A stretch of 64,000 nucleotides of DNA from a bacterium (GTDB taxonomy: Bacteria > Hinthialibacterota > Hinthialibacteria > OLB16), in NCBI GenBank assembly GCA_022072055.1, contig JAJVIK010000007.1, forward strand, positions 513,442 through 577,441, read 5' to 3'. Below, piece after piece: positions 14,211 through 61,018 of the stretch (its first letter is position 1; every line of letters begins with the position of its first letter). The position numbers and the translations under genes were made by a program. The notes below the pieces were generated by a model that was not told the DNA's origin, searched no databases, and was given only the letters and a program-made list of their open reading frames with translations.

Positions 14211-17051
14211 ATGGGCCAACCGATGCACGCAAAGACCCGCCGGATCCTTTTCAGCGCTGTGGTGACACTTCTCTCAACCCTCGGAGTCACGATGCGGGCC
14301 GAGTCCATGACACCCACCCATCTCCGCTGTGAATACCTGGTGAACCCGATCGGAATCGATACGGCCGTCCCACGCCTGAGCTGGCGACTCGCTTCCAGCG
14401 CGCGCGGCGCGCGGCAGAGCGCCTACCGGATTCTGGTGGCCTCCTCCACAGCCGAGCTGAGCAACGACCAAGGCGACCTGTGGGACTCCGGGAAGATCGA
14501 GTCCTCCGAGACCACGCAGATTGTCTATTCCGGAAAGACGCTTTCACACGGTCTTGAATGCCATTGGAAGGTCCGCGCCTGGGACAGCGCGGGGACCCCT
14601 TCCGGATGGAGCGAGGTCGCGCGCTGGTCAATGGGTCCGATGGAGAGCTCGGATTGGACCGCGAAGTGGATCGGCAACGAGGCGCCCTCCCCGCCCACCC
14701 AAGACCCGCTTCCGGCCCAGATGCTTCGCAAGGAATTCGCCCTTGCTTCCTCGCTCCGTCGCGCGGTGGTGCATGTTTCCGCCCTGGGCCTCTATGAGCT
14801 GCGCCTCAACGGCGCGCGCGTGGGGAACCAACTCCTCGCGCCCGAATGGACCGACTATCCCACCCGGGTTCAATATCAGACATACGAAGTGACTGGCTTG
14901 CTTCGCGCCGGAGAAAACGCGGTTGCGGCGCATCTCGGCGATGGGTGGTATTCGGGGCGGATCGGTCTTTCCAACATCGTTCCCGATGGACCGTTGCGCG
15001 GCATTTATGGTCCAAGACCCCGGTTGCTCGTTCAGCTGGAGATCGAATTCGAGGATGGACTTAAGGAGCGGGTGGTCAGCGATGGGAGTTGGCGGCTGAC
15101 CGATGAAGGCCCGATTCGCTCGGCGGACATCCTGGATGGGGAGGTGTATGACGCCCGCCGGGAAAAGCCCGGATGGGACCAGCCCGGTTTTGAGGATTCC
15201 GATTGGAAACCGGTCCAAGTTGAAGAGGATTTCCAGGGCAAGCTGGTGGCCCAGAGGAACGAACCGATCCGAGTGGTCGAGGAGCTGAAACCGATCGCGA
15301 TCACCGAACCGGCGTCCGGCGTGTACATCTTCGATCTCGGGCAGAACATGGTGGGCTGGTGCCGCGCGCGCCTCAGGGGCGAGGCTGGGCGCGCCATCCG
15401 GCTGCGTCACAGCGAGGCGCTGAAGCCGGATGGAACCCTCTATCGAGACAATCTGCGCATGCCGAGTGATGGAGGTCCCTTGGGAGCGCGTCAGGAGGAT
15501 CTCTACATCTGCCGCGGCGAAGGGCCGGAGTGGTTCGAGCCGCATTTCACCTACCATGGTTTCCGCTATGTCGAGGTGACCGGACTTGCGGAGCGACCCA
15601 ACCTCGATTCGCTTGTGGGGCGGGTGTTCTGCTCCTCCGCGCCGGAGACCGCGACCTTTGAGTGCTCCGAGCCGATGCTGAACCGGCTCATGAAGAACAT
15701 CCTCTGGACCCAGCGCGGCAATCTGATGAGTGTTCCGACCGACTGCCCGCAGCGGGATGAGCGTCTAGGTTGGATGGGGGATGCCGGAATCTTCTCTCCG
15801 GCGGCGTGCTTCAACATGGACATGGCCGCATTTTTCACCAAGTGGCTCCAGGATGTTCGGGATTCCCAGGCCGCGGATGGCCGCTTTCCGGATTTCGCGC
15901 CGCATCCGTTCGGTCCGAACGAACGTTTCTCCGGGGTTCCGGCTTGGGGGGATGCCGGGGTGATTGTCCCGTGGGTGGTTTATCGCTGGTATGGGGACAG
16001 TCGGCTGATCGAGACCCATTTCCAGGCCGCCGCGCGCTGGGTGGACCGGATCGCGGAGAAGAACCCGGATCGGATCTGGCGGAACTCTCGCGGCAACGAC
16101 TATGGCGATTGGCTGAATGGCGACACGCTGATCCGGGAGGGGTGGACGCGCGCTGGGGCGGCGATCCCGAAAGAGATCTTCGCGACCCTCCTGTTCGCCA
16201 ACTCGGCAACCCTGGTGGCCAAAATGGCGGCCGTGATCGGCAAGGAGCGGGAGGCCGAGAAGTACAGCGAACTGGCGAGGACCATCCGCGCCGCGTTTGT
16301 CCGGGAGTTTGTGGACAGCGAAGGGCGCATCCAGGGGGACACCCAGGCGGGGTATGCCCTCGCGCTCTCCTTCGAAATGCTCCCAGCGGAGCTCGAGGCG
16401 AAGGCGTTTACACACATGGTGGAGGCTATCGAGAAATATAACCAGCATCTCTCAACCGGGATTATCAGCACCCTTCACCTGATGAACGAGCTGGCGAATC
16501 GCGGCCAGGTCGAGCTGGCCTACCGTCTCCTTACTCAGCGGACCTTCCCTTCCTGGGGGTATGCCATCGAGCAGGGCGCCACCACGATCTGGGAGCGTTG
16601 GGATGGGTATGTGGAGGGCCGGGGATTTCAGGACCCCGGGATGAACTCCTTCAACCACTATGCCCTGGGGGCGGTGGGCGAGTTCATCCATCGAAACATC
16701 CTCGGGATCAACCCGGACACGGACCATCCGGGGTTTGCGCATGCGCGGATTCACCCTCGTCCCGGCGGGGGTTTGACCTGGGCGCGTGGAGCCTATGACT
16801 CGATCCGCGGTCCGATCCGGGTGAGCTGGAGAATCAACGACGCCGGTGGGTTCCGGTTGGAGGTGGAGCTCCCCGCGAACACGAGTGGGACTGTTTACCT
16901 CCCCGCGCGGGAAGCCGCCCAAGTGAGTGAAAGCGGCAAGTCGCTCCGGGAGGCGGAAGGGATTCTCGCGAGCAGGGCCGAGGGAGAGGTCACCGCCGTG
17001 GAGGTGGGTTCGGGGGCGTATGCCTTCGAGGTTTCTCACGCGCCAAGGTAA
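14211..17051 (+). CDS. Alpha-L-rhamnosidase (glycoside hydrolase family 78)
   Basis: 946 aa with signal peptide; GH78 blocks (DCPQRDERLGWMGDAG, six-hairpin region, C-terminal beta-sandwich). Confidence 0.85.
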   Translation: MGQPMHAKTRRILFSAVVTLLSTLGVTMRAESMTPTHLRCEYLVNPIGIDTAVPRLSWRLASSARGARQSAYRILVASSTAELSNDQGDLWDSGKIESSETTQIVYSGKTLSHGLECHWKVRAWDSAGTPSGWSEVARWSMGPMESSDWTAKWIGNEAPSPPTQDPLPAQMLRKEFALASSLRRAVVHVSALGLYELRLNGARVGNQLLAPEWTDYPTRVQYQTYEVTGLLRAGENAVAAHLGDGWYSGRIGLSNIVPDGPLRGIYGPRPRLLVQLEIEFEDGLKERVVSDGSWRLTDEGPIRSADILDGEVYDARREKPGWDQPGFEDSDWKPVQVEEDFQGKLVAQRNEPIRVVEELKPIAITEPASGVYIFDLGQNMVGWCRARLRGEAGRAIRLRHSEALKPDGTLYRDNLRMPSDGGPLGARQEDLYICRGEGPEWFEPHFTYHGFRYVEVTGLAERPNLDSLVGRVFCSSAPETATFECSEPMLNRLMKNILWTQRGNLMSVPTDCPQRDERLGWMGDAGIFSPAACFNMDMAAFFTKWLQDVRDSQAADGRFPDFAPHPFGPNERFSGVPAWGDAGVIVPWVVYRWYGDSRLIETHFQAAARWVDRIAEKNPDRIWRNSRGNDYGDWLNGDTLIREGWTRAGAAIPKEIFATLLFANSATLVAKMAAVIGKEREAEKYSELARTIRAAFVREFVDSEGRIQGDTQAGYALALSFEMLPAELEAKAFTHMVEAIEKYNQHLSTGIISTLHLMNELANRGQVELAYRLLTQRTFPSWGYAIEQGATTIWERWDGYVEGRGFQDPGMNSFNHYALGAVGEFIHRNILGINPDTDHPGFAHARIHPRPGGGLTWARGAYDSIRGPIRVSWRINDAGGFRLEVELPANTSGTVYLPAREAAQVSESGKSLREAEGILASRAEGEVTAVEVGSGAYAFEVSHAPR

Positions 17052-17060
17052 GGTTCATGG

Positions 17061-17228
17061 GCGGAGTCCAACTCCGCGGTCCGGTTCCGCCCAGGAGTCC
17101 AACTCCTGGGCGAGCGGAGGGTTAGAGCATTTCTCACTCGGATGTCGTGTTGGAGGGGCGCGGTCCCTCGCGTCCGGACACGACAGAGCTACGGGGGCGT
17201 CCGGACACGACAGAGCGTGTCCCTCCTG
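17061..17228. repeat. Mosaic GC-rich palindromic repeat, copy B1 (two TCCAA-loop hairpins, TTAGAGC module, GGACACG hairpins)
   Basis: Fills the convergent gap between rhamnosidase and rhaT; homologous to segments at 40720-40772, 53925-54020 (inverted) and 60552-60637. Confidence 0.6.
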
Positions 17229-17229
17229 G

Positions 17230-18285
17230 CTACGGGGTCGCGTCCTTCAGGTAATTCCCCACTCCAATGATGAGGGTGGAGAGGATCAACACCGCGATGC
17301 CGCCTTGGAGCAGCCCCTTGGCCTTCGGGCTGGTTCCGCTCCATTCACGCAGCCAGAGACCCCACAGATTGCTGAACACGATGATGAAGGCCATGTGGAG
17401 GGTCCAACTGGAGAAATCATACTCGCCCATGCGCGTGGTCCCCATCCCATAGAAGAAGAATTGCAAGTACCAGGTGACCCCGGCCAACGCGGAAAAGATG
17501 TAGTTCCGCGTCATCCCCGGCTTGGTGGTGTCGAGATATTCCCCGACCGTGCCGTTGGAATAGTGCAGCAGGGCGCACCAGATCAGGTTGGTCGTGAATC
17601 CGCCCAATAGAACCACCACGAGCACCGGGGTGTTTTGCCAGATGTCCGGCGTGCCCATCTCAATCGCCAGACCGGCGATGGGCTTGCCGGCCTGAAAGGC
17701 GAAGGCCATGCAGGCGCTCATGATCCCGCAGAAGACCGCCACCCAGACCCCCTTGGTGAACTGGTATTCGGCCACCGCGTTGGCCTTTTCGGCCACCGAG
17801 AGCTCCCGCTCCTTAAGGACCCCAGCCCAACCGCTGACCCCGATTCCCGCGATGCACACGCACACCCCGAGAAGAATGGCCCATCCGGAAGCTTGGGTGA
17901 GAAGAACTCCCAAGGTTCCCTCGAAGAGCGGCGGGAGAAGGGTCCCGAAGGTGGCGCAAAGTCCGAGCGCCAAGGCATACCCCAGCGAAAGCCCCAGATA
18001 GCGCATGGTCAACCCGAAGGTGAGTCCGCCCACGCCCCACAGAACCCCGAAGAGGTAAGTGTTGAAGAGCGCCGCCGCGGGGGCGCTGGAGAGGATCTCA
18101 AACAGACGCGGATTGAGCAGACTGGCCGCCACCAGCGGCGCGATGATCCAGGAGAACACCCCGCCCACCGCCCAGTAGGTCTCCCAGGACCAGCCCCGAA
18201 CCTTCTTGAACGGGAGGTAAAAGCTCCCCGCGGCCAGCCCCCCGACCGCGTGCAAAAACACACCCAGCATCGGATTCGCTTCCAT
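17230..18285 (-). CDS. rhaT: L-rhamnose-proton symporter
   Basis: About 351 aa, 10 TM helices, RhaT-like N-terminus MEANPMLGVFLHAVGGLAAGSFYLPFKKV; upstream extension in the ORF track rejected. Confidence 0.85.
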   Translation of the reverse strand: MEANPMLGVFLHAVGGLAAGSFYLPFKKVRGWSWETYWAVGGVFSWIIAPLVAASLLNPRLFEILSSAPAAALFNTYLFGVLWGVGGLTFGLTMRYLGLSLGYALALGLCATFGTLLPPLFEGTLGVLLTQASGWAILLGVCVCIAGIGVSGWAGVLKERELSVAEKANAVAEYQFTKGVWVAVFCGIMSACMAFAFQAGKPIAGLAIEMGTPDIWQNTPVLVVVLLGGFTTNLIWCALLHYSNGTVGEYLDTTKPGMTRNYIFSALAGVTWYLQFFFYGMGTTRMGEYDFSSWTLHMAFIIVFSNLWGLWLREWSGTSPKAKGLLQGGIAVLILSTLIIGVGNYLKDATP

Positions 18286-40485: not shown

Positions 40486-40722
40486 AATTTCCGGCAAGAG
40501 GCCACGATCATACGGGAACTTGAGATTAGGAAAAACGAGATCGAGAAGCTGTGCACGAAGCATTCTGTCCGACGCCTGGAAGTATTTGGCTCCTCGGTGG
40601 AAGGCCGGTTTGACCCCGAGGCCAGTGACCTAGTAGTCTTGGATTCCCGCTTTCGCGGGAATGACGAATATCAGGGACTCCTTCAAGAGCTCGCGCGTCT
40701 TCTGCAGTCATCTTCGCCGTAG
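40486..40722 (+). pseudogene. Remnant of an MNT-type nucleotidyltransferase (HepT/MNT antitoxin family), no start codon, C-terminus replaced by repeats
   Basis: Open frame encoding IRKNEIEKLCTKHSVRRLEVFGSSVEGRFDPEASDLVVLD, then the repeat-encoded DSRFRGNDE; absent from the ORF track. Confidence 0.55.
40641..40669. repeat. Short palindromic element, family A copy 1 (GGATTCCCGCTTTCGCGGGAATGACGAAT)
   Basis: Perfect 7-bp-stem hairpin; identical 29-mer at 59506-59534. Confidence 0.6.
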
Positions 40723-40772
40723 AGCATCTCTCAACCCGAATGTAGCGTCGGAGGGACGCGCTCCGTCGCGTC
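40720..40772. repeat. Mosaic GC-rich palindromic repeat, copy B2 (TAGAGC module plus GGAGGGACGCG hairpin)
   Basis: Aligns with 17122-17175 and with the reverse complement of 53960-54020. Confidence 0.5.
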
Positions 40773-40849
40773 ATGTTGCCCCGGAAGACCCACCACGATT
40801 GGGCGTGGCCCTCCGAGGATTTGCAGGATATCATTAACCGCTCAAGTGA

Positions 40850-43082: not shown

Positions 43083-46000
43083 ATGAGAATCCGCCCATTC
43101 TCGCTCTTGGCGTTTCCTCCGTTGCTTTTTTGCCTCCTTGTGCCTGGGGCGCGAGCCGCCACGTTCACGGTCACCAACACGAACAACAGTGGGGCGGGAT
43201 CCCTGCGTCAGGCGATCCTGGAGGCCAACAGCGTGCTGCCTCCAGAAGCGGTGTTTATTCATTTTAACATTATCGGAATGTTCGTGTTCCCGATTATCAA
43301 TCCCTCTTCTCCGCTTCCCAACATCCTTCGTCCGGTCACCATCGATGGAACCACTCAGCCGACTTCCAACAACCGCGTGGCCATCCAAGGCATTAACGCG
43401 GGGGCCAACGCGGATGGTCTCCATTTCGGTCCCAACTCCGATGGCAGCGTGGTCCGCGGTCTGGTTATCAACAGTTGGAGCGATGACGGCATCGAGCTTG
43501 AGCAGAGCGATGGCACGGTGGTGGCCAGGAATTGGATCGGAGTCGATTTCGCCTTGGGGATGGTCGATCTGGGTAACGGCGCGGCTGGAGTTCATGTCAA
43601 TAATTCGTCCCACACAAGTATTGGTGGACTCACCGCCGCGGACCGAAACGTGATTTCAGGAAACAACGGAAACGGTGTATGGATCATTAATGGCTCCACT
43701 GGGACTCATGTGATCGGAAACTACATCGGAATTGGCGCTGATGGAGCCACCGCCGTCCGCAACACGAACACGGGGGTCCTTATTGCGGCCTGCTCCGACA
43801 ATTATGTCGGTGGTCCGACAGTCGGGGAAAGAAACATCATTTCCGGCAACGGAAACGGAGTGACTGTGCTGGGGGCCAACGCCAGGAACAATGTGATCCA
43901 AGGAAACTGGATTGGAACCAGCGCGAATGGTTCTGCCGACTTGGGGAATGTGGTGGATGGCGTTCGGATCGAATCGGCGCAAAACACGCTGATCGGAGGG
44001 GATGCATCGTTTGAAGGCAACCCGCCGGGGAATGTCATTTCGGGAAACGACATGGCGGGAGTCCACATTCTGGGGGCAAGCCGCACCTTCATCCAGGGAA
44101 ACGCCATCGGGAAGGATGGCAGCGTGGTGGTCGCGATCCCCAACGGAGGGGATGGAGTTCTCGTTGAAGCCGAGACGCTGGGAGCATGGCCCCGACACAC
44201 GGTCATCGGCGGCAGGGGAGGACTCGGCAACGACATCTCACACAATCAGCTGAGCGGGATCGCGATCGAGGATGGAACCGGTGTGCTGATCCAAGGAAAC
44301 AGCCTCTCCGGGAACGGCCAATATGGCGTACGCCTTCGTAGCGACGACAATGTCGTGGGCGGCCCCAGCCCCGAGGACGGCAACGTGATCGCCTTCAACG
44401 GCCGAAGCGGAGTCTATGTAAACGCATCGAGTGGAAATTTGATCGGCGGGGCCACCGAGGAAAGCGGGACCTTCATCTTTGGGAATCAGGAACATGGCGT
44501 CCTGATCAGCGGTCTCACTGGAGAGAACAATCGGATCGAGGGGTGCAATATCGGACGCACCGTGGGGGGGGGCGCATCGGGAAACCTCCGAAACGGCGTC
44601 CGAATCAGCATGTCAAGCAACAACATCGTGGGGGGAACGGAGCCCCACAAGGCCAACGTCATTGTCGCCAACCAGGAGGGGGGCGTGGCGATTCTCAGTG
44701 AGCTCACCCACGGCAACCGAGTTCAAGGAAACGGGATCGGGGTCAGCCTCGAGATTGTAAACAAAGGGACCTACTCCAACTCTGTTGGGGTGTTGATCGA
44801 TGGCGCCAAGAACAACCTGATCGGCGGAACCGAGCCGGGCGCGAGGAATCTGATCTCAGGTAATGACGGGGATGGCATCCTTCTTCGCAACTCCGCCTCA
44901 AACAACCGCATTCAAGGCAACCTGATCGGCCTCGCGGGGGATGGAGTCTTCGGTGTCGGCAATGGCGCAGCGGGGATCGAAATCCTGAATTCCCCCAACA
45001 ACCTCATCGGCGGCACCATGCCCGGCGCGCGCAATGTGATCGCGGACAACAGCGACGGCATCTTTATCCTCGGAGGAGCCCTCTCCGCGAACAATGTCAT
45101 CCGGGGGAATTACATTGGGACCGATGTCTCCGGCGCGCTGGCTCGAGGGAATCATGTTAACGGGGTCTTCGCCCAAGCGGCGGAATTTGTGGTCGGCGGG
45201 ACCGAACCGGGCGCCGGAAATCTGATTTCCGCGAACAGGCTGCGAGGAGTGTTTCTCTCCAGCTTCGATTCCACTCACTGCCGGGTCCAAGGCAATCGGA
45301 TCGGAACCGACGCCTCCGGCATGGCCGCGCTGGGGAATGGAGGCGACGGGGCCCTCCTGGAGAGCACGATCCAGTGCGCCATCGGCGGAACCGCGCCGGG
45401 CGCGGGCAACCTCATCTCCGGGAATGGCGGGAATGGTGTCTGGCTGGTCACCGGAGCAAGCGGAAATGTTGTCGCGGGCAACTTCATCGGCACGAATATC
45501 ACTGGGGACACAAGTCTCGGGAACGGCCAGAGCGCGGTCCTTATCGAGGACGCCCAATTGAACCGGATCGGGGGAAACCAGCCCGGCGCCGCCAACATCC
45601 TCTCCGGCACCAACCAATATGGGGTCCACATCAATCATCCGCTGGCCAAGGAGAATCGCATCGAGGGCAACTTCATCGGGACCGACATCACGGGCTCATT
45701 GCCCCTCGGCAACAGGTTCGGCGGAGTGTTGATTGTGGACGCCTCGGACAACTATATCGGCGGGACAACACCCGGCGCGGGGAACTTGATCTCCGGAAAC
45801 GGAGGCTCCGGCATCCGCCTGTTCAAGACCATGAACACCCCCGGAAGAACCTTCATTCAGGGCAATCGGATCGGAACCGACGTCACCGGAGTGTTGCCGC
45901 TGGGGAACATGAGTCGAGGCGTCGACCTTTCCGCGACAGTCGGAGTGGAGATCGGAGGGATCACCGAGGGCGCGCGAAACCTGATCTCCGGGAACGGGTT

Positions 46001-47342
46001 CTCCGGAATTCTGTTCCACGATGAGGCGCGCGAAACCCTGGTCCAGGGGAATTTCATCGGGACCGACATCACCGGGCTTCTGCCGGTTCCGAATGGTCTT
46101 GATGGGGTCTTCATCGAAAACGCCCCAAGCAATCTGGTCGGAGGCGCCACTCCCGGCGCGGGAAACCTGATCTCCGGGAACGCCCGCTATGGCGTCTATC
46201 TCCTCGATAGCAAGGCGGTCGGGAACCGTGTCCAGGGGAATCGCATCGGCACGGATCTCACCGGTTCCTCGGATATCGGCAACGCCTCGGCGGGGATGTA
46301 CATCAAAGCCGCGACCGGCAATGCTCTAGGCGGAACCGGAGCGGGCGAGGGGAATCAAATCGCCTTTAACCTCGCCGGGGTGACCATCCTTTCCGGCTCG
46401 ATGAACCCCATCCTCTCCAACTCGATCTTCTCCAATGATGGCCTTGGAATCGATCTTGGCGAGGACGGAGTCACCGCCAACGACGAGATCGACTCCGACA
46501 CCGGCGCGAACGATTTCCAAAACTATCCGATCCTCACCGACGCTCGAATCGCCGAGGCCCAACCGGACAACATCCTGTCGATCACAGGAACCCTGCACAG
46601 CGCCACAGCCACGGAGTTCCTGCTTCAGTTCTTCGCAAGCGAGATCTGCGATGCTTCCGGTTTCGGTGAAGGAAGGGTCTTCATCGGTTCGGCCACTGTT
46701 GTGACCAACGCCTCCGGAGACGTCACATTCACATTCGATTTTCCCATCCAACTTACTGGAGCTCTCCAGCTCACCTCAACCGCCACGGACCCCATCGGCA
46801 ACAGCTCGGAGTTCTCCCAGTGCCTGGAGGTGGTCGGCATTCCGACCCCCACTCCGACCGCGAGCGCCACGCTCACCCCCACCTCGACCCCATCGCCGAG
46901 CGCCTCGCCCACGGAGACCGCGACAGACACGCCAAGCGCCTCTCCGACTCAATCGTCCTCTCCCTCGGCGACCTTCACCGGGCAACCGACCGTCACCGCG
47001 AGCGCAACCCCCTCGGCGACCGCCACGGGACAGCCAACATCCACGCCGACCGCGACCTCCTCATCCGCTCCGAGCGCAACTCCCACTCCCACAACCACGG
47101 GTAGCCTACCGGCGACGTCAACTCCCACTCCCACCACGACCGGCAGCCAAGCGGCCACCCCCACGGCCACTTCCACCTGCGCGCCGGACTACAACCTGGA
47201 TGGGCTGGGGGCGATCGACGCGCGGGACCTTCTGCAGCTCCTCGCCGCGATCCGCTCAGGCGACCCCCAAGCGGACTTCAATTGCGATGGCGCGGTGGAT
47301 GGGGATGATCTGCTCGAGTTCAGTGGGAGGTGGAAGGAATAG
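43083..47342 (+). CDS. Giant secreted right-handed parallel beta-helix repeat protein with Pro/Thr-rich linker and C-terminal dockerin-like domain
   Basis: Signal peptide; tens of PbH1-like repeats (NxIxGNxIGxxxxG); dockerin-like Ca-binding loops DYNLDGLGAIDARDL and DFNCDGAVDGDDL. Confidence 0.8.
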   Translation: MRIRPFSLLAFPPLLFCLLVPGARAATFTVTNTNNSGAGSLRQAILEANSVLPPEAVFIHFNIIGMFVFPIINPSSPLPNILRPVTIDGTTQPTSNNRVAIQGINAGANADGLHFGPNSDGSVVRGLVINSWSDDGIELEQSDGTVVARNWIGVDFALGMVDLGNGAAGVHVNNSSHTSIGGLTAADRNVISGNNGNGVWIINGSTGTHVIGNYIGIGADGATAVRNTNTGVLIAACSDNYVGGPTVGERNIISGNGNGVTVLGANARNNVIQGNWIGTSANGSADLGNVVDGVRIESAQNTLIGGDASFEGNPPGNVISGNDMAGVHILGASRTFIQGNAIGKDGSVVVAIPNGGDGVLVEAETLGAWPRHTVIGGRGGLGNDISHNQLSGIAIEDGTGVLIQGNSLSGNGQYGVRLRSDDNVVGGPSPEDGNVIAFNGRSGVYVNASSGNLIGGATEESGTFIFGNQEHGVLISGLTGENNRIEGCNIGRTVGGGASGNLRNGVRISMSSNNIVGGTEPHKANVIVANQEGGVAILSELTHGNRVQGNGIGVSLEIVNKGTYSNSVGVLIDGAKNNLIGGTEPGARNLISGNDGDGILLRNSASNNRIQGNLIGLAGDGVFGVGNGAAGIEILNSPNNLIGGTMPGARNVIADNSDGIFILGGALSANNVIRGNYIGTDVSGALARGNHVNGVFAQAAEFVVGGTEPGAGNLISANRLRGVFLSSFDSTHCRVQGNRIGTDASGMAALGNGGDGALLESTIQCAIGGTAPGAGNLISGNGGNGVWLVTGASGNVVAGNFIGTNITGDTSLGNGQSAVLIEDAQLNRIGGNQPGAANILSGTNQYGVHINHPLAKENRIEGNFIGTDITGSLPLGNRFGGVLIVDASDNYIGGTTPGAGNLISGNGGSGIRLFKTMNTPGRTFIQGNRIGTDVTGVLPLGNMSRGVDLSATVGVEIGGITEGARNLISGNGFSGILFHDEARETLVQGNFIGTDITGLLPVPNGLDGVFIENAPSNLVGGATPGAGNLISGNARYGVYLLDSKAVGNRVQGNRIGTDLTGSSDIGNASAGMYIKAATGNALGGTGAGEGNQIAFNLAGVTILSGSMNPILSNSIFSNDGLGIDLGEDGVTANDEIDSDTGANDFQNYPILTDARIAEAQPDNILSITGTLHSATATEFLLQFFASEICDASGFGEGRVFIGSATVVTNASGDVTFTFDFPIQLTGALQLTSTATDPIGNSSEFSQCLEVVGIPTPTPTASATLTPTSTPSPSASPTETATDTPSASPTQSSSPSATFTGQPTVTASATPSATATGQPTSTPTATSSSAPSATPTPTTTGSLPATSTPTPTTTGSQAATPTATSTCAPDYNLDGLGAIDARDLLQLLAAIRSGDPQADFNCDGAVDGDDLLEFSGRWKE
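46839..47177 (+). repeat. Low-complexity Pro/Thr/Ser-rich linker-coding repeat inside the beta-helix gene
   Basis: About 113 codons of T/P/S/A with a reiterated TPTPTTTGS unit. Confidence 0.6.
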
Positions 47343-53924: not shown

Positions 53925-54020
53925 CTGGAGGGACACGCTCCGTCGTGTCCGGGCGCGAGGGGCCAAGGGACGCGACGGAGCGCGTCCCTCCAACGCAACA
54001 TCCGAGTGAGATAGGCTCTA
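53925..54020. repeat. Mosaic GC-rich palindromic repeat, copy B3 (inverted orientation; long imperfect hairpin)
   Basis: Reverse complement aligns with 17122-17225; about 24-bp stem pairing GGAGGGACACGCTCCGTCGTGTCC with GGGACGCGACGGAGCGCGTCCCTCC. Confidence 0.6.
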
Positions 54021-54030
54021 AGTTGGGGTG

Positions 54031-55311
54031 TCAGTTCCCGACCGGATCGAGCAGAAACGCGCGGTATTTCCCGTTAATCGTTCCCTCTCCCACAATCTGG
54101 CCCTTGTTGTTGATGTCCTTCGCGATCAAAAGGACCCAGCCTTTCCCATCCACAAGCTGGTTGGTCAGATCATAGAGCGCTCCATCTTTCCACAGGACCG
54201 CGGAGCTTTTCGCGCCGATCCGGTCACTGATCTGGTTCCAGAGTTGACGGACCCAGCGGAACTGCTTGAATCTGTTGTAGAACTTTTGCGCGAGGGGAAT
54301 GTCGATTCCGTCCCCGACAATTTCACCTCGATCATTGAGGGCGAGCGGCCGACAACTCTCGAAAGACTTCATCGCAAGGAAAGCATGGGTTCCGTTGTCC
54401 CAGAGGAAAGGTTCGTATTCGTCAAAATCTCCACCGGTGGGGAAAGCCCCCGCCACTTGACCGCGCTGGTTTAAGGCCGCCGCCGAGCTGCCCTTCATGC
54501 CGCTTAGATGAATGTCCCGCATCCCTTTGTCCGGAGTCCAAACAAAGGCGTGCTGCTCGCCGCTTGCGGTGGAGCCGTATCCGGCGATCCAGCCGGAGGA
54601 GTTTACCGCGGCAGGGTGGACAACGGGGCCTCCGAGATCACCCAAGTCCTCAAAACCACATTCCGAGGTCCATCGGAAGAGGCGTCGATAGGGCCGAGGG
54701 GGCGCCCTTTTCGGACCCTCCATGTCCTGCGCGGCCACCACGAAGGCTCCTCCCGATCCGAAAAGAACGTCCTCGATGGAGGTGAATCCCGTGATGGAAA
54801 GAACAACCTCCTCGGCTGAGGCAGACCGGATGAGGTGAATTCTCTTTGGCTGTCTCAGCGGCGCGCCCGCGCCATACACTCCGAAGGCGCCGCCATAGAC
54901 CGAAGGACCACCCGGCGTGAACTCCTCCACAGTTTCCACAACGAGGATTCTCCCGAGGGGGTCGATTTCGACCGCTGTTCCCGTGGTCCCCTGGGAGAGG
55001 CCCAGGTCTTTCATTCCCGATTCTCTTGTCCACAGAAAGGGATGGGTGACGAAGGGTGGAACAAACTGTTGCATGTTGCCGGGAGACGAATCTTTGGGGC
55101 GCGGAACCGCGGCGCTCCCGACCACCTCGCCTCGATCATTGATGGCCACGGCACGCACTTGCGCGTGCTTGGAGAGAACCCCCAGATCGGTGATGCGATA
55201 ACGAGGTCCCGAGGGCCAGGCCAACAACCACCACAAGAAAAGCGCCCCGAATGCAAAGACCGCCGCCTGGAGGAACGTCTTACGCTGGGTTATTGATTTC
55301 CCCTCAGCCAT
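54031..55311 (-). CDS. HAF-repeat family extracellular/anchored protein, paralog 1
   Basis: N-terminal hydrophobic anchor, PSGPRYRITDLG, HAF-like repeats (INDRGEVVG, QHAFVWTP), C-terminal GKYRAFLLDPV. Confidence 0.7.
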   Translation of the reverse strand: MAEGKSITQRKTFLQAAVFAFGALFLWWLLAWPSGPRYRITDLGVLSKHAQVRAVAINDRGEVVGSAAVPRPKDSSPGNMQQFVPPFVTHPFLWTRESGMKDLGLSQGTTGTAVEIDPLGRILVVETVEEFTPGGPSVYGGAFGVYGAGAPLRQPKRIHLIRSASAEEVVLSITGFTSIEDVLFGSGGAFVVAAQDMEGPKRAPPRPYRRLFRWTSECGFEDLGDLGGPVVHPAAVNSSGWIAGYGSTASGEQHAFVWTPDKGMRDIHLSGMKGSSAAALNQRGQVAGAFPTGGDFDEYEPFLWDNGTHAFLAMKSFESCRPLALNDRGEIVGDGIDIPLAQKFYNRFKQFRWVRQLWNQISDRIGAKSSAVLWKDGALYDLTNQLVDGKGWVLLIAKDINNKGQIVGEGTINGKYRAFLLDPVGN

Positions 55312-56062: not shown

Positions 56063-57316
56063 TCACTCCACCGGGTCAAGCAGGAACGAGCGCGTGTTTC
56101 CCTGGAAGGTCCCCTCGCCCACAATCTGTCCCTTGTTGTTGATGTGCCTGGCGGACCAAAGGACCCAGTCGTCCCCGTCCACAAGCTGGTTGTTCAGATC
56201 ATATAACTCCCCATCCTTCCACAGGAGCGCGGAAGCCCTCTCCTCGAGCCAGTTCTCGCCCCAGTCTTCGAGCCAAGGGACAGCCCAGGCGGCCCAAGGT
56301 CGCTGCATGAGCGCTGTCAAAATCCTCTGGGTGGCGGGACGGTACGATCCGCCCCCGACTATCTCTCCAGGATCGTTGATATCTTGGGCCTCGCAACGTT
56401 CGAAATGCTCCACGGGGAGCGGGGTGTAGGTTTCCTTCTCCCAGAGGAAGGGTTTCGACCCACCCCACCCGCCGCGTGACCAGGAAAATCCCACGACCTG
56501 ACCTCGGTTGTTCAACCCCTGTGCGTGGCTGATCCGCTCGTCGGTCGGATGGATGTCCCGCATCCCTTGAACCGGAGTCCAGATAAACGCGTGCTGTTCC
56601 CTGCTCGCCGTGAGGGCATATCCGGCAATCCAACCGTTTTCGTTCGCCGATTCTGGAATGACTTGGTTGCCCCCCAAGTTCCCGAGACTTTCATATCCCT
56701 TCTCCGCGCTCCACCGAAGAAGGTCTTCAGACTGGGTCCCCACCGTGGTCAGGCCGCTCGCCGGCATCAGCAGGGTCTCATTCGGTCCGAGGGCGACCTG
56801 ACCCAAGGAGATGGCGCGAGTTTCGGTCAGGATGATGTGCGCGCCGGTGGCCGAATGGATCACATAGGTGCGCTTTATGGGTTGTGGTCGGGGAGTCCCA
56901 TAACCTCCCGGCCCACCGTAAGGTTGCACGGCGGATGGGGAGAGGTCTTGATGGTGCTCAACGACCAGAATCCGGCCGCGTTCGTCAATGTCCCGGGCGG
57001 AGCCGGAATTGCCCTCCAAGAGGCCGAGGTCCCTTATCCCCGACTCGCGGGTCCAGAGAAAGGGGTGTGTGACATAACTCCGGCGTCGTCCCCCCTCGGA
57101 AGGGGTGGCGGATTCAACCGGAAGGGGAACCGCCATGCCGCCAACCACCTCGCCACGCTCATTGAGGTCGGCCACTTGATCCGCCACCCTGCTCGCCCCG
57201 ATTTGGAGGTCGGTGATGCGATAGCGGGGACCGGAGGGCGGAGATGAAAGGAGCAGGAGGGCAAGCGCGCCGAGGGCGACAATGGCTGAAAGGAGGAACG
57301 CGATTCGCTTCGGCAT
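56063..57316 (-). CDS. HAF-repeat family extracellular/anchored protein, paralog 2
   Basis: Same architecture as 54031-55311 (PSGPRYRITDL, HPFLWTRESGIRDLG, QHAFIWTP, C-terminal RSFLLDPVE). Confidence 0.7.
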   Translation of the reverse strand: MPKRIAFLLSAIVALGALALLLLSSPPSGPRYRITDLQIGASRVADQVADLNERGEVVGGMAVPLPVESATPSEGGRRRSYVTHPFLWTRESGIRDLGLLEGNSGSARDIDERGRILVVEHHQDLSPSAVQPYGGPGGYGTPRPQPIKRTYVIHSATGAHIILTETRAISLGQVALGPNETLLMPASGLTTVGTQSEDLLRWSAEKGYESLGNLGGNQVIPESANENGWIAGYALTASREQHAFIWTPVQGMRDIHPTDERISHAQGLNNRGQVVGFSWSRGGWGGSKPFLWEKETYTPLPVEHFERCEAQDINDPGEIVGGGSYRPATQRILTALMQRPWAAWAVPWLEDWGENWLEERASALLWKDGELYDLNNQLVDGDDWVLWSARHINNKGQIVGEGTFQGNTRSFLLDPVE

Positions 57317-57356
57317 TCGAGCAGCTCACGCTCCAGCAAAACGAATGAAGGCGATG

Positions 57357-57545
57357 TTAGTCCTTGGTCGCCATGGGGGCGCCGGGGTGAACAATCCGCT
57401 CGGGATGTTCACGCTCCGCCTCGCGGAGTTTCTCGCAGAATGTGTGCAGATCAGACCCGGCCTCCCTGAAAAGGTCCGCCCCGGCCCGGCGAGTCTCCTC
57501 CACAATAGGGTCATCCCACGTGTAAACCTCATCGTTGGGCATCAT
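57357..57545 (-). CDS. Small acidic hypothetical ORF downstream of the disrupted PIN gene
   Basis: About 62 aa (MMPNDEVYTWDDPIVEETRRAGADLFREAGSDLHTFCEKLREAEREHPERIV); start uncertain. Confidence 0.25.
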   Translation of the reverse strand: MMPNDEVYTWDDPIVEETRRAGADLFREAGSDLHTFCEKLREAEREHPERIVHPGAPMATKD

Positions 57546-58033
57546 CAAGCAGTTCCTCCGGTGTACAGATCGTCGGTGTTGAGAATCCTTCTCTTTGGTT
57601 AATTTGCCGCACTCGACGGCGAATATGACCGTTGGCGATATGCCTGCAGTTCCATGTTGCCAGAAACATCGTGCCCCAAACAGAGGCAGGGGCAATGTGA
57701 AGGGCATCACGCGCGGCATCCGTGGGCAGGTCAGATTTCCTCGAGATAGACACTGGCCAGCCGCTCCACTTCGGCGGACACATGGAGTTCTGAAAACCCG
57801 CGCAGCGAGGCCAGTCGCTTTCTCGCCGCATCCTGGTCACCGCGTGACGCCTCGGCCAGGACTACCTCGGATATGAAGACCTCGTACCCCGGAAGCGCCT
57901 CCTTCCACCACCGACGAGTGATCTCTTGGTGGGCCAGAACAAGGATGTCCCTCGACGAGCGGGCTTCGAGATAGCCGACAACTGAAGTTTCGAGGTACAG
58001 GCGTGGCTTATCAGCCATTATCGATGGTTCCAC
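57529..58033 (-). pseudogene. PIN-like nuclease gene split by an apparent frameshift near 57731-57745
   Basis: N-terminal part (RLYLETSVV...YEVFISEVV) ends at stop 57731; C-terminal part (DALHIAPA...FLATWNCRHIANG) continues in another frame. Confidence 0.5.
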
Positions 58034-58059
58034 CTTTCATCTGCGTCATACTTGGAGGA

Positions 58060-58437
58060 TCACTCGACCGGGTCAAGAATGAACCCCGCGTCTTTCCCCT
58101 TGTACTTTCCCACGCCGATGATCTGGCCGTTGTCGTTAATGTCGTTCACACCCTTCGCGTTTCCCTCTTGGCCCACCGCAAAACCGAGATTCTTCATTCC
58201 GCTTTCGTGAGTCCACAGGAAGGGGTGAGTAATCTCATCCGTGCCGGACTCGACCCCGTAGTGGCCGACCACAACCCCATCGCTATTGATGCTGGTCGGC
58301 CAGATCTCGCCATCCCCCAATTGCTCCAGCTCCGTGATCCGATACCTCGGCCCTTCCGGCGCCCGCCGAAGGTAATAGAACGAGGCAAGGGCGGCGGACA
58401 GGAGAACAAGGATGAGGAGGAGATTTCGCTTGGGCAT
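58060..58437 (-). CDS. HAF-repeat family protein, short paralog 3
   Basis: About 125 aa from MPKRNLLLILVLLSAALA; keeps the N-terminal PEGPRYRITEL, one repeat and C-terminal GFILDPVE. Confidence 0.6.
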   Translation of the reverse strand: MPKRNLLLILVLLSAALASFYYLRRAPEGPRYRITELEQLGDGEIWPTSINSDGVVVGHYGVESGTDEITHPFLWTHESGMKNLGFAVGQEGNAKGVNDINDNGQIIGVGKYKGKDAGFILDPVE

Positions 58438-58459
58438 CGGAATTCCTCGTTGCACAACC

Positions 58460-60241
58460 TCAATTCGCCGCTTCTCCCAGCCCGGACCGCCCCTGTCCCT
58501 GCTCCAGGACCCAATCGCGGATGAACTGCGGTGGGAGCTGGTGCAGCGAGAAAAGCCGCTCCCCGCGATAGGCCACTGTGGCCAGCGCCGGGAGCTCCGC
58601 CAAGACCTTCCGCGCCGCCGGATGAAGGTCGCTATAGCGGCTCCCGATGCACGCGAAGACCTGAAGGCCGGGATTGGCGAGCTCCGCCGAGAGCTCGAAC
58701 CGAAACACTTGCAGCCCCTCCGGAATCGCGGGCCAGCCCTCCGGGCCCTCGCGATAGACCGCAGCCGCTCCGCCCTCCAGCAGCAGCACATCCCCCGGAC
58801 GCGCGAGTTCCTGCAGTTTCGGATTGAGCCGATGCATCGAAACCCCCAGGTAATCCAGATCAAACCCCAAGTGTTTCGCCCCGGAGGGCCCGCCGATCAA
58901 GGGCGTGTAGTAGATCAAGTTGTGCGGGTAAACGCGCAGAGATGGAAACAACACAGCCGTCCCCAATGCGGCGAACAGGCTCCACCGAATCGGGCCGGAG
59001 AAACCGGGGTTCCACCGCGACAAGGCCCAACGCCAACCCTCGCGCAGCTCCATCGCGGCGAGCGCACACATCGGGCCATAGGCCGGCAGCAGCAAGCGGA
59101 CCCCATCGAACTTGGGCACGCTCGGAATCGAACTGATCGCGAGCGGCAAGGCGAACGCCACCCACAGCAAACCTTCCTCGCTTCCCCAACCGATCTCGCG
59201 TGTTCGGAACAGGCGCGCGAGTTTCCGAAGCGCGCGCACCGCCACGGGAACCACCAGAAGTGGCGGGAGCGCGAGGGCCGTGAACACCCACGGGTAATGC
59301 CAGGGGGCAAGATTCCAGTGGTTGTAAACGACTCCGAAATAATAGACCGGGATCTTCAGGTGGTTTCCGATGAAGTCGGCGTACTCCTTTATCCCCTTGG
59401 GGAAATCCAGCCACAACGCGGGCCAGAGCAGAAAGGCCGCGAGCAGCGCAAGGAGAGAGAGGAGAAGCGCCATGAGCGCTTCCCTGAGGCTCCGTCGGAG
59501 CGGCTCGCCGCTCCTGGATTCCCGCTTTCGCGGGAATGACGAATCTTCAAGGGGCAGGGATTCCTCATTGTTCCCGCCGCGCCCGTCATCCCCGCGAAAG
59601 CGGGGATCCACGCCCATCGCGGCAAGCTGTGTGGAGAGCACCCAGAACCCAAGGAGTGCGACCAGGTACATCCCCTGCACCTTGGTGAGCAGCGCGAGCA
59701 CAAACAGGACCAGCGCCACGACCTTCCACGCATGGCTTCTGTTCCAGCCCATGAGCGCGAGCGTGGCAAGGCCATACAGCGCGCCAATCAGCCCATCGAT
59801 TCCGAATCGAACCCCATGCAGCACAAAGCGCGGGCTGCCCAGGAACAGCAGCGCCGCAATCAATCCCGCCTTTCGGCCCATCCGCGACGCGAGAAAGGCA
59901 TACGAGGCCGCGCACCAGATTGAGGTGACCAAGGCCACAAACACACGACACGACCCAAGCTCGCCAAGGCTTCGTCGAAACAGGGCGTTGCAGAATCCGC
60001 CCCCGATTTCCATCAGCGGCGGGTGGCGGTGCGCGTCGGGGAAGTACGCGCGCGGCTCGAAAAGACTCGGGGCCGATTCAGCGGTCCACCAGGACTCCAG
60101 CCAGCGACTCCAAGGGACCGCGCGGTTGTAGAACAGCCAGGAATCCCAGTAGGGTCCGAACCCAGGACTGAGTAGGATGAGTCCCCAGAGGATGATGGCG
60201 CCAAGGAGAGTGGCCTCAAGGCCAAGCCGACTTCGGATCAT
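58460..60241 (-). CDS. Polytopic membrane glycosyltransferase, GT39/PMT-ArnT-like, carrying a repeat-encoded hydrophilic insertion
   Basis: 593 aa, many TM helices N-terminally and a soluble C-terminal domain; family assignment from architecture only. Confidence 0.55.
   Translation of the reverse strand: MIRSRLGLEATLLGAIILWGLILLSPGFGPYWDSWLFYNRAVPWSRWLESWWTAESAPSLFEPRAYFPDAHRHPPLMEIGGGFCNALFRRSLGELGSCRVFVALVTSIWCAASYAFLASRMGRKAGLIAALLFLGSPRFVLHGVRFGIDGLIGALYGLATLALMGWNRSHAWKVVALVLFVLALLTKVQGMYLVALLGFWVLSTQLAAMGVDPRFRGDDGRGGNNEESLPLEDSSFPRKRESRSGEPLRRSLREALMALLLSLLALLAAFLLWPALWLDFPKGIKEYADFIGNHLKIPVYYFGVVYNHWNLAPWHYPWVFTALALPPLLVVPVAVRALRKLARLFRTREIGWGSEEGLLWVAFALPLAISSIPSVPKFDGVRLLLPAYGPMCALAAMELREGWRWALSRWNPGFSGPIRWSLFAALGTAVLFPSLRVYPHNLIYYTPLIGGPSGAKHLGFDLDYLGVSMHRLNPKLQELARPGDVLLLEGGAAAVYREGPEGWPAIPEGLQVFRFELSAELANPGLQVFACIGSRYSDLHPAARKVLAELPALATVAYRGERLFSLHQLPPQFIRDWVLEQGQGRSGLGEAAN
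59506..59599. repeat. Family A composite palindromic element (29-mer plus inverted partner CGTCATCCCCGCGAAAGCGGGGATCC) inside the glycosyltransferase ORF
   Basis: Left arm identical to 40641-40669; right arm is its reverse complement with compensatory changes; translated in-frame as a loop. Confidence 0.6.
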
Positions 60242-60523: not shown

Positions 60524-60551
60524 GGGTTTCCCTCTCCTCGTACGGATCTGC

Positions 60552-60637
60552 GTGAGTGCAACTCACCTTACCGGCTCCGCCCCGGAGTGCAACTCCCGGG
60601 CGAGCGTGGGGCCGCGACGGAGCGCGGCCCTCCTCAC
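60552..60637. repeat. Mosaic GC-rich palindromic repeat, copy B4 (two TGCAA-loop hairpins plus GGCCGCG hairpin)
   Basis: Aligns with 17061-17121; stems differ by compensatory substitutions while loops are conserved. Confidence 0.55.
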
Positions 60638-61018
60638 TCAATCATGAACAATGCCGCGATAGGCCGTGGCATCCAGGAGCGTGTCGAGGTCCGCCGAATT
60701 GGCCGGAGCAATCCGGAACAGCCATCCTTTTTCATACGGGGATTGATTGATCCAATCGGGGTGTGTGGCCAGGTCGGCGTTGATCGCGGTCACCGTCCCT
60801 CCCACCGGGGCGTAGACATCCGAGGCCACCTTGGTCGATTCGACCACACAGCAAGCCTCCTTGGCCGCGACCGCGCGCCCGACCTCGGGGAGCTCCACGA
60901 ACACAATGTCGGTGAGTTCATGCTGGGCGAAGTCGGTGACCCCCACCACCACTTGGCCGTCTTCCAGGCGAGCCCATTCGTGAGTTTCGGAATATTTCAA
61001 GGTTTCCGGGACAATCAT
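60638..61018 (-). CDS. gcvH: Glycine cleavage system H protein
   Basis: Lipoyl-lysine region ESTKVASDVYAPVGGTV; 126 aa. Confidence 0.9.
   Translation of the reverse strand: MIVPETLKYSETHEWARLEDGQVVVGVTDFAQHELTDIVFVELPEVGRAVAAKEACCVVESTKVASDVYAPVGGTVTAINADLATHPDWINQSPYEKGWLFRIAPANSADLDTLLDATAYRGIVHD

Follow-up and report, generated by a model that had tools for sequence, protein, structure and literature searches.

The closest described counterparts of the repeats analysed here are the REP/BIME elements of E. coli, the REPINs of Pseudomonas and the REPs of Desulfomonile tiedjei. The mechanism of the E. coli REP-associated tyrosine transposase (RAYT) and of the IS200/IS605 transposases has been set out (PMC6006769). 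REPs are described as species-specific (PMC6006769), and the inheritance of REPIN–RAYT systems within a lineage is described as mostly vertical (10.1101/2022.05.22.493013). The published REP descriptor requires a GT[AG]G foot (Quentin 2018, PMC6006769), and GGAG is not among the degenerate GTAG forms that have been tabulated (Di Nocera 2013, PMC3733652). The REPs of Desulfomonile tiedjei are GTAGGGATCGGCGTCCCTGCCGGTC and GTGGTGGCCGGCCTCCGTGCCGGC (PMC6006769, Table S1). Another class, the CGTC-tagged REPs, reportedly has no transposase link (Di Nocera 2013, PMC3733652).

Here, we analysed a 64,000-nt stretch of bacterial DNA (the window; G+C content, 62%) in which short palindromic repeats recur at four intergenic loci. 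Our analysis argues strongly that the 24-nt hairpins at these loci are REP elements in BIME/REPIN-like mosaics, with a GGAG foot in place of GT[AG]G.

Repeat modules at four intergenic loci

The first-pass annotation had claimed that four intergenic loci share alignable modules, and this claim was borne out. Three module types common to the four loci (A–D) were found in the window at or near where that annotation had placed them, and pairwise BLAST alignments of the loci gave E values of 2e-9 to 4e-4. The four-way alignment revealed a mosaic arrangement (Table 1). The core unit, hereafter REP, is a 24-nt hairpin consisting of GGAG, a 7-bp stem (GG…CC) and a loop of CTCCGT, CTCTGT or GTCCCT. 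Searching the window for GGAGGGNCRCGCTCYGTCGYGNCC with up to three mismatches yielded six matches, a number reached in none of 100 shuffles (mean expectation, 0.03), and a seventh, degenerate copy lies in locus B. Module 2 is a 30-nt sequence, TTAGAGC…TCTCACTCGGATGT, that abuts the REP foot; its string TAGAGCNTNTCTCANYCGRATGT is present at 17123 (+) and 53998 (-), with 0.01 occurrences expected, and a third, degenerate copy was recognised by alignment in locus B. Module 1, found in loci A and D, is a pair of GAGTTGNACTC hairpins, the two copies being 31 nt apart. Its string GGAGTNCAACTCC occurs at 17063, 17094 and 60584 (0.36 expected), and a fourth, related hairpin, GTGAGTGCAACTCAC, at 60552.

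Table 1. Positions of the repeat loci in the window and of the modules that compose them (arrowheads give REP orientation; rc, reverse complement).
Feature	Positions	Strand	Composition or remark
Locus A	17061-17229		hairpin pair + 30-nt module + REP> + half copy + <REP
Module 1 hairpin a, GCGGAGT-CCA-ACTCCGC	17061-17077	+	10 nt past rhamnosidase stop (17049-17051)
Module 1 hairpin b, CGCCCAGGAGT-CCA-ACTCCTGGGCG	17088-17112	+	perfect 11-bp stem; 31 nt after hairpin a
Module 2, TTAGAGCATTTCTCACTCGGATGTCGTGTT	17122-17151	+	adjoins GGAG foot of next REP
REP, GGAG foot, stem GGGCGCG/CGCGTCC, loop GTCCCT	17152-17175	+	pattern match
Half REP, GGACACGACAGAGC	17176-17189	-	local duplicate of part of next REP
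REP, GGAGGGACACGCTCTGTCGTGTCC on - strand	17203-17226	-	pattern match; foot 3 nt after RhaT stop (17230-17232)
Locus B	40720-40814		30-nt module + REP> + spacer + <REP
Module 2, degenerate, TAGAGCATCTCTCAACCCGAATGTAGCGTC	40720-40749	+	from alignment
REP, GGAGGGACGCGCTCCGTCGCGTCA	40750-40773	+	pattern match; last stem pair broken
Degenerate inverted REP, …CCACGATTGGGCGTGGCCCTCC	40790-40814	-	repeat match 81 nt, 75%
Locus C	53927-54021		inverted; (rc) 30-nt module + REP> + spacer + <REP
REP, GGAGGGACACGCTCCGTCGTGTCC	53927-53950	+	pattern match; 27 nt past aldolase/SDR gene stop
REP, GGAGGGACGCGCTCCGTCGCGTCC on - strand	53968-53991	-	pattern match; tail-to-tail doublet with 53927-53950
Module 2, TTAGAGCCTATCTCACTCGGATGTTGCGTT on - strand	53992-54021	-	9 nt from stop of 54031-55311 (-) gene
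Locus D	60552-60633		hairpin pair + <REP
Module 1 hairpin a', GTGAGT-GCA-ACTCAC	60552-60566	+	
Module 1 hairpin b', CGCCCCGGAGT-GCA-ACTCCCGGGCG	60578-60602	+	one C·C mismatch
REP, GGAGGGCCGCGCTCCGTCGCGGCC on - strand	60610-60633	-	pattern match; foot 4 nt after gcvH stop (60638-60640)

Loci A, B and C each contain an inverted REP doublet, and locus D has a single REP. A folding check suggested by the first-pass annotation gave long hairpins for two of the doublets: the locus C doublet folds as one long hairpin (z -5.4/-5.9), and in locus A the downstream REP (-) pairs with the upstream REP (+) to form a long REPIN-type hairpin (z -3.6). The two units of locus B are, on the evidence of the alignment, a decayed doublet homologous to that of locus C. 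In loci A, B and C, module 2 always abuts the GGAG foot of one REP per doublet. The 30-nt module probably travels with the doublet and, to judge from only three copies, might be an extension of the mobilised unit peculiar to this lineage.

According to Pfam assignments of the neighbouring genes, locus A is situated between the stops of an alpha-L-rhamnosidase gene (+) and the RhaT gene (-), locus B between a family-4 glycosyltransferase gene (+) and a methyltransferase gene (-), and locus C between the convergent stops of a rhamnulose-phosphate aldolase/short-chain dehydrogenase fusion gene (+) and a 426-aa gene (-). Locus D separates two minus-strand genes, with the gcvH stop on one side and the start of an 85-aa gene on the other. 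The earlier statement that each copy begins within 0-70 nt of a stop codon was roughly right: it applies to loci A, C and D (distances in Table 1), and locus B is 36 nt from the methyltransferase stop but 235 nt from the stop of the upstream gene; the 'tag' at 40720 ends no supported gene. On a crude gene map of the window, elements occupied three of the 6 convergent gaps, one of the 39 tandem gaps and none of the 6 divergent gaps. The 6-7 REP copies in the 64 kb are all intergenic and all 3' of genes, and in other genomes 42% of the REP copies fall in long open frames, compared with 79% of random positions.

The window contains other repeats as well. A CGTC-tagged palindrome, CGTCATTCCCGCGAAAGCGGGAATCCA, occurs at 40640-40666 (-), 59515-59541 (-) and 59584-59610 (+), the latter two forming an inverted doublet that spans exactly 96 nt (59515-59610). 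This doublet sits in frame inside a 593-aa PMT_2-like membrane-protein ORF (58460-60241, -), where it encodes ...GVDPRFRGDDG...SSFPRKRESRS..., and the ORF called in the related strain is equally long. A 1419-aa ORF (43083-47342, +) consists in part of about nine tandem coding repeats of 186-195 nt with 61-84% DNA identity, and the neighbouring paralogous genes at 54031-55311 (-) and 56063-57316 (-) share stretches that are 71-79% identical. A contig of the related strain (L120) has only short patchy matches at about 57.3-58.45 kb (window about 57273-58455), beside PIN and MazE-like genes.

The gcvH spacer was then compared with those of relatives. A strain with 99.3% identity has an identical locus D, REP copy included. 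In a related species whose GcvH is 87% identical, the spacer between gcvH and the 85-aa gene (L142:1436-1530, compared with window 60524-60637) and the double hairpin are kept (GAGTTGTACTC, twice) and REP is absent. This absence hints directly at a gain or loss of REP. At the REP site, L142 has 10 unrelated nt versus 29 nt in the window; the boundaries have diverged, leaving no clean insertion boundary. Thus, the double hairpin is conserved across two species at this spacer and, since it is present in a REP-less orthologous spacer, is older than and independent of REP at the gcvH locus. The modules therefore have separate histories, contrary to the earlier treatment of them as one family. The equivalent comparison at locus A was uninformative, the relative having a different gene after rhaT. 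Outside the lineage, the double hairpin was absent from 1.17 Mb of other loci. Metagenome scans for module 2 beside REP gave no match with a first pattern and four with a second, which we rejected as three chance matches and one unrelated Verrucomicrobia REP context. Modules 1 and 2 are additions known only in this lineage.

The core hairpin and its transposase in other genomes

A wider scan for the 24-nt REP pattern, with one genome per species, detected it at at least 119 loci in about 70 assemblies from many phyla, including assemblies labelled Verrucomicrobiota, Planctomycetota, Lentisphaerae, Kiritimatiellae, Desulfobacterales, Smithellaceae, Terriglobia, Brocadiaceae, Fermentibacteria and Fimbriimonadaceae, among others. 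Copies lay on either strand, some of them in tandem arrays and some within open reading frames. Among the matches listed, the sequences flanking REP copies were unrelated between genomes, and several other assemblies carried the motif on 4-7 separate contigs each. Inverted REP pairs often had differing stems (e.g., ACGCG with CCACG), and, among the matches listed, such pairings recurred in distant phyla. A scan of a viral collection gave only three matches for REP and none for module 1 or module 2, indicating that the elements are not phage-borne. A full-text literature search for the REP sequences retrieved the motif in no paper, figures and many journals being outside the search; the GGAG-foot motif may have been described before.

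The foot was GGAG in all window copies and in 154 of 154 matches elsewhere (among the matches listed). Matches with the CTCCGT loop had all seven stem pairs in 125 of 126 cases among those listed, two stem positions being free in the pattern. When the foot and the CTCCGT loop served as the only anchor and the stem was left free, 35 of 45 matches lying beyond the original pattern kept at least six of the seven stem pairs, with new stems at the formerly fixed positions (GGACGCA/TGCGTCC, GGCCATG/CATGGCC, GGTCGGG/CCCGACC and GGACGAC/GTCGTCC). The covariance check on the core hairpin that the first-pass annotation had called for also came out clearly: among 78 distinct sequences, the stem covariation score was 0.49, compared with 0.15 for shuffled sequences, was reached in none of 500 shuffles and did not exceed 0.17 in slid controls. 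Double-sided stem changes numbered 102, compared with 33 in shuffles. Since the stem pairs and covaries while the foot and loop stay fixed, the unit is GGAG followed by a 7-bp GG…CC stem and a 6-nt loop.

Clustering of all ORFs across the 119 motif-bearing loci revealed no protein family that was commonly adjacent. The sole relevant cluster comprised Y1 (HUH) transposase-like proteins at four of these loci. At one of them, the Lentisphaerae locus L038, the ORF matched the NCBIfam model NF047646, 'REP-associated tyrosine transposase', above its cutoff and was bracketed by an identical REP triplet on each side. This protein had 1402 homologues, the best 120 of which were 52-73% identical, the exact self-match aside; many of these 120 are named RayT by JGI. 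We found seven further independent RAYT loci (L123, Kiritimatiellae; L124, Planctomycetes; L125/126, Fimbriimonadaceae; L127/128, L133, L134 and L136, the other labels being an Alphaproteobacteria-labelled MAG, an ENA/NCBI contig and two JGI metagenome contigs). All seven genes have GGAG-GG hairpins of 4+7+6+7 geometry on both sides within about 100 nt, so that this RAYT subfamily is flanked on both sides by GGAG hairpins at eight of eight independent loci, all from other organisms. In three 20-kb RAYT loci, the flanking hairpins were the only GGAG hairpins of that geometry. In the Fimbriimonadaceae assembly JBASWW01, the stem of a dispersed REP (L066) is also the stem of the REPs beside RAYT on another contig (L126). 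Both a HuH motif (PDHIH) and a Tyr motif (YVRxNP) are retained in the subfamily, and the nearest solved structure is E. coli TnpA_REP (PDB 4ER8, E 1.2e-7). No RAYT gene is present within the 64-kb window, and the RAYT–REP link therefore rests on other organisms.

Two others of the four loci in this cluster were left out as support. That in a Verrucomicrobiia MAG (L043:7028-7600) is tied to a different, canonical GTAG REP: the gene is flanked by CTGTAGCCGCGCTTGCKAAGCGCGG, and a further GTAG REP copy interrupts the stretch of the gene that separates its HuH motif from its Tyr motif. The other, a RAYT-like ORF in a Verrucomicrobiota MAG (L012:5476-7620), is tied to another GGAG-foot hairpin with the loop GTCCC, and lies amid GGAG-CCGGCC-GTCCC-GGCCGG and GGAG-ACGGCG-GTCCC-CGCCGT hairpins; these suggest that the GGAG foot is common to several REP types.

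RAYT ORF calls often begin within the upstream REP cluster (L038:555-700 and L136:10001-10190). Database proteins consequently carry REP-encoded N-termini such as GGPRSVVAENGRDEARPS, which explain the weak tblastn matches to the window's REPs.

Origin of the hairpins and rival explanations

REPs would be non-autonomous DNA hairpins recognised in single-stranded DNA by a RAYT, an HUH/Y1 enzyme, and copied within the genome. If it acts like the E. coli enzyme and the IS200/IS605 transposases, the RAYT would bind the hairpin in single-stranded DNA, read the tetranucleotide 5' of the stem, cut nearby and so spread the hairpins; the tetranucleotide acting as foot or guide would then be GGAG. RAYT-type recognition predicts that foot and loop stay constant and that the stem covaries freely. 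A pair of inverted units would make up a REPIN/BIME-like doublet capable of folding into a single long hairpin, and copies would build up at sites where they are nearly harmless, directly downstream of stop codons and most of all in the gaps that separate convergent genes. The window copies were presumably made by a RAYT of the same subfamily that is, or formerly was, encoded elsewhere in this genome.

The features by which REP systems are recognised can be compared with these data. REPs are short GC-rich palindromes of 20-40 nt that form hairpins, and the present unit has 24 nt, a 7-bp stem and a 6-nt loop. The GT[AG]G foot expected within 2 nt of the stem (PMC6006769) was not found; the conserved foot at the right place is GGAG, and its presence in all copies indicates a variant rather than a canonical foot. 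Loci A, B and C have the inverted doublets and mosaics with linkers of REPINs and BIMEs, with two recurrent linker modules. The REPtron arrangement, a RAYT flanked by the same REPs, was found at the eight loci of other organisms and not within the window. The first-pass annotation had listed REP/BIME-like elements among its options, and this option is favoured by the foot, the GC-rich stem, the inverted doublets, the 3'-end placement and the RAYT flanking in other genomes.

That annotation had also considered RNA structures. Were the hairpins RNA 3'-end structures selected in place, such as terminators or exonuclease barriers, rather than mobile DNA, their position in 3' intergenic gaps, with REPs beginning 3-4 nt past the RhaT and gcvH stops, and their great stability would be readily understood, and E. 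coli REPs are reported to stabilise mRNA, terminate transcription and affect translation (PMC6006769). However, no terminator-like site (a stem and a T-run) was found on either strand of any of the four loci, units are found in either orientation, transposase genes of unrelated phyla have this 24-nt sequence at their flanks, and REP is absent from the relative's orthologous gcvH spacer although gene order is kept there. We therefore consider selection in place improbable. A secondary RNA effect is possible and compatible with REPs as mobile DNA: we infer that whatever the hairpins do at mRNA 3' ends is a side effect only, and, by analogy with E. coli REPs, such effects might extend to translation termination.

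The conserved, covarying structures, for which no known Rfam family accounts, could also be read as an uncharacterised family of small structured RNAs. The earlier statement that neither coding potential nor a known RNA family was evident is upheld, Rfam 15 covariance models giving no match at the four loci at the gathering score or at E values up to 5. Yet a DNA hairpin that a Y1 transposase recognises would be expected to covary just as much, the conserved unit measures no more than 24 nt, its flanks are unrelated between genomes, copies are present on either strand, as tandem arrays and within open reading frames, and no promoter-like sites were seen on either strand of the four loci. Nothing supported this option, which appears very improbable. 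The remaining candidate, a decayed MITE or insertion sequence of the conventional type, bounded by terminal inverted repeats and mobilised by a DDE transposase, would account for the MITE-like size of the inverted doublets (REP, spacer and REP, about 65-75 nt), but target-site duplications and conserved internal sequence were not seen, each arm is a hairpin complete in itself, found also alone (locus D) and in tandem (L017 and L125), and the associated protein is an HUH/Y1 enzyme; we regard it as the least probable of the explanations considered. A CRISPR array was ruled out, the copies being dispersed, in both orientations and with differing stems, and the tandem copies (L017) having identical spacers.

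REP elements with a variant foot thus explain the four odd intergenic regions of the window as ordinary selfish or domesticated repeat DNA. Recognising them as such also prevents mis-annotation, several database ORFs crossing the hairpins as 'EGRAPSRP/GHAPSWP'-type peptides. GGAG-foot REPs would be missed by REP finders that demand GTAG or GTGG, and they seem to be widespread in poorly studied phyla, beside one well-conserved RAYT subfamily. The pairing of hairpin and RAYT offers a simple test system for how a Y1 transposase reads foot and loop, and bears on the movement of REP–RAYT systems between phyla.

More tentatively, we put forward a two-part proposal whose parts are judged jointly and which we would not yet favour: that the GGAG hairpin and its RAYT form one REP–RAYT superfamily, in which foot, loop and geometry hardly vary among the PVC group, Armatimonadota, Acidobacteriota, Desulfobacterota and others, and, separately, that the double hairpin with its GAGTTGNACTC core could be a new regulatory or protein-binding element. 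A single superfamily, if real, would run against species-specific REPs and the vertical inheritance of REPIN–RAYT systems, and would mean either that transposase and hairpins have repeatedly been transferred together horizontally or that a very old and very tight protein–DNA co-constraint is at work. The cross-phylum conservation of the hairpin–transposase pair is the one point that perhaps deserves a wider look.

Comparison with known REP systems

Like the E. coli REP/BIME elements and their transposase TnpA_REP (4ER8), the elements described here are short GC-rich imperfect palindromes with a tetranucleotide foot 5' of the stem, form mosaics of alternating orientation with conserved linker motifs at gene 3' ends, and have a transposase gene flanked by its own REPs (a REPtron). 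In contrast to the E. coli elements, the foot is GGAG rather than GTAG, the hairpin is short (7 bp with a 6-nt loop) and has no bulge, and the linker modules are unrelated to the E. coli BIME linkers. The Pseudomonas REPINs (Bertels and Rainey, PMC3116915) likewise consist of two inverted REPs with a short spacer that form one long hairpin, as in locus C (z about -5.5), together with a single-copy transposase bracketed by REPs; the doublet here differs in being asymmetric, with a 30-nt extension on one foot only.

Whereas REPs have been regarded as species-specific, foot and loop are here common to many phyla, and near-identical units in about 70 assemblies from many phyla (at least 119 loci) contrast with the mostly vertical inheritance described for REPIN–RAYT systems (10.1101/2022.05.22.493013).

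The CGTC-tagged REPs (Di Nocera 2013, PMC3733652), a type also present in the window, differ from the GGAG motif in foot, stem and loop. Relative to the GTAG REPs of the PVC group (PMC3733652; PMC6006769), the second base of the foot is G instead of T. Nearest among published elements are the REPs that Desulfomonile tiedjei has with RAYT subclass 2.7, whose loops, GTCCCT and CTCCGT, are those found here and whose layout of foot and then GG is also the same (GTAGGG-ATCGGC-GTCCCT-GCCGGTC and GTGGTG-GCCGGC-CTCCGT-GCCGGC). The Tyr motif of that subclass, YI[LR][NQ]NP, resembles the YVRxNP of the present subfamily. Taken together, the GGAG family differs from published REPs in its foot, its short bulge-free stem and the conservation of foot and loop across phyla.
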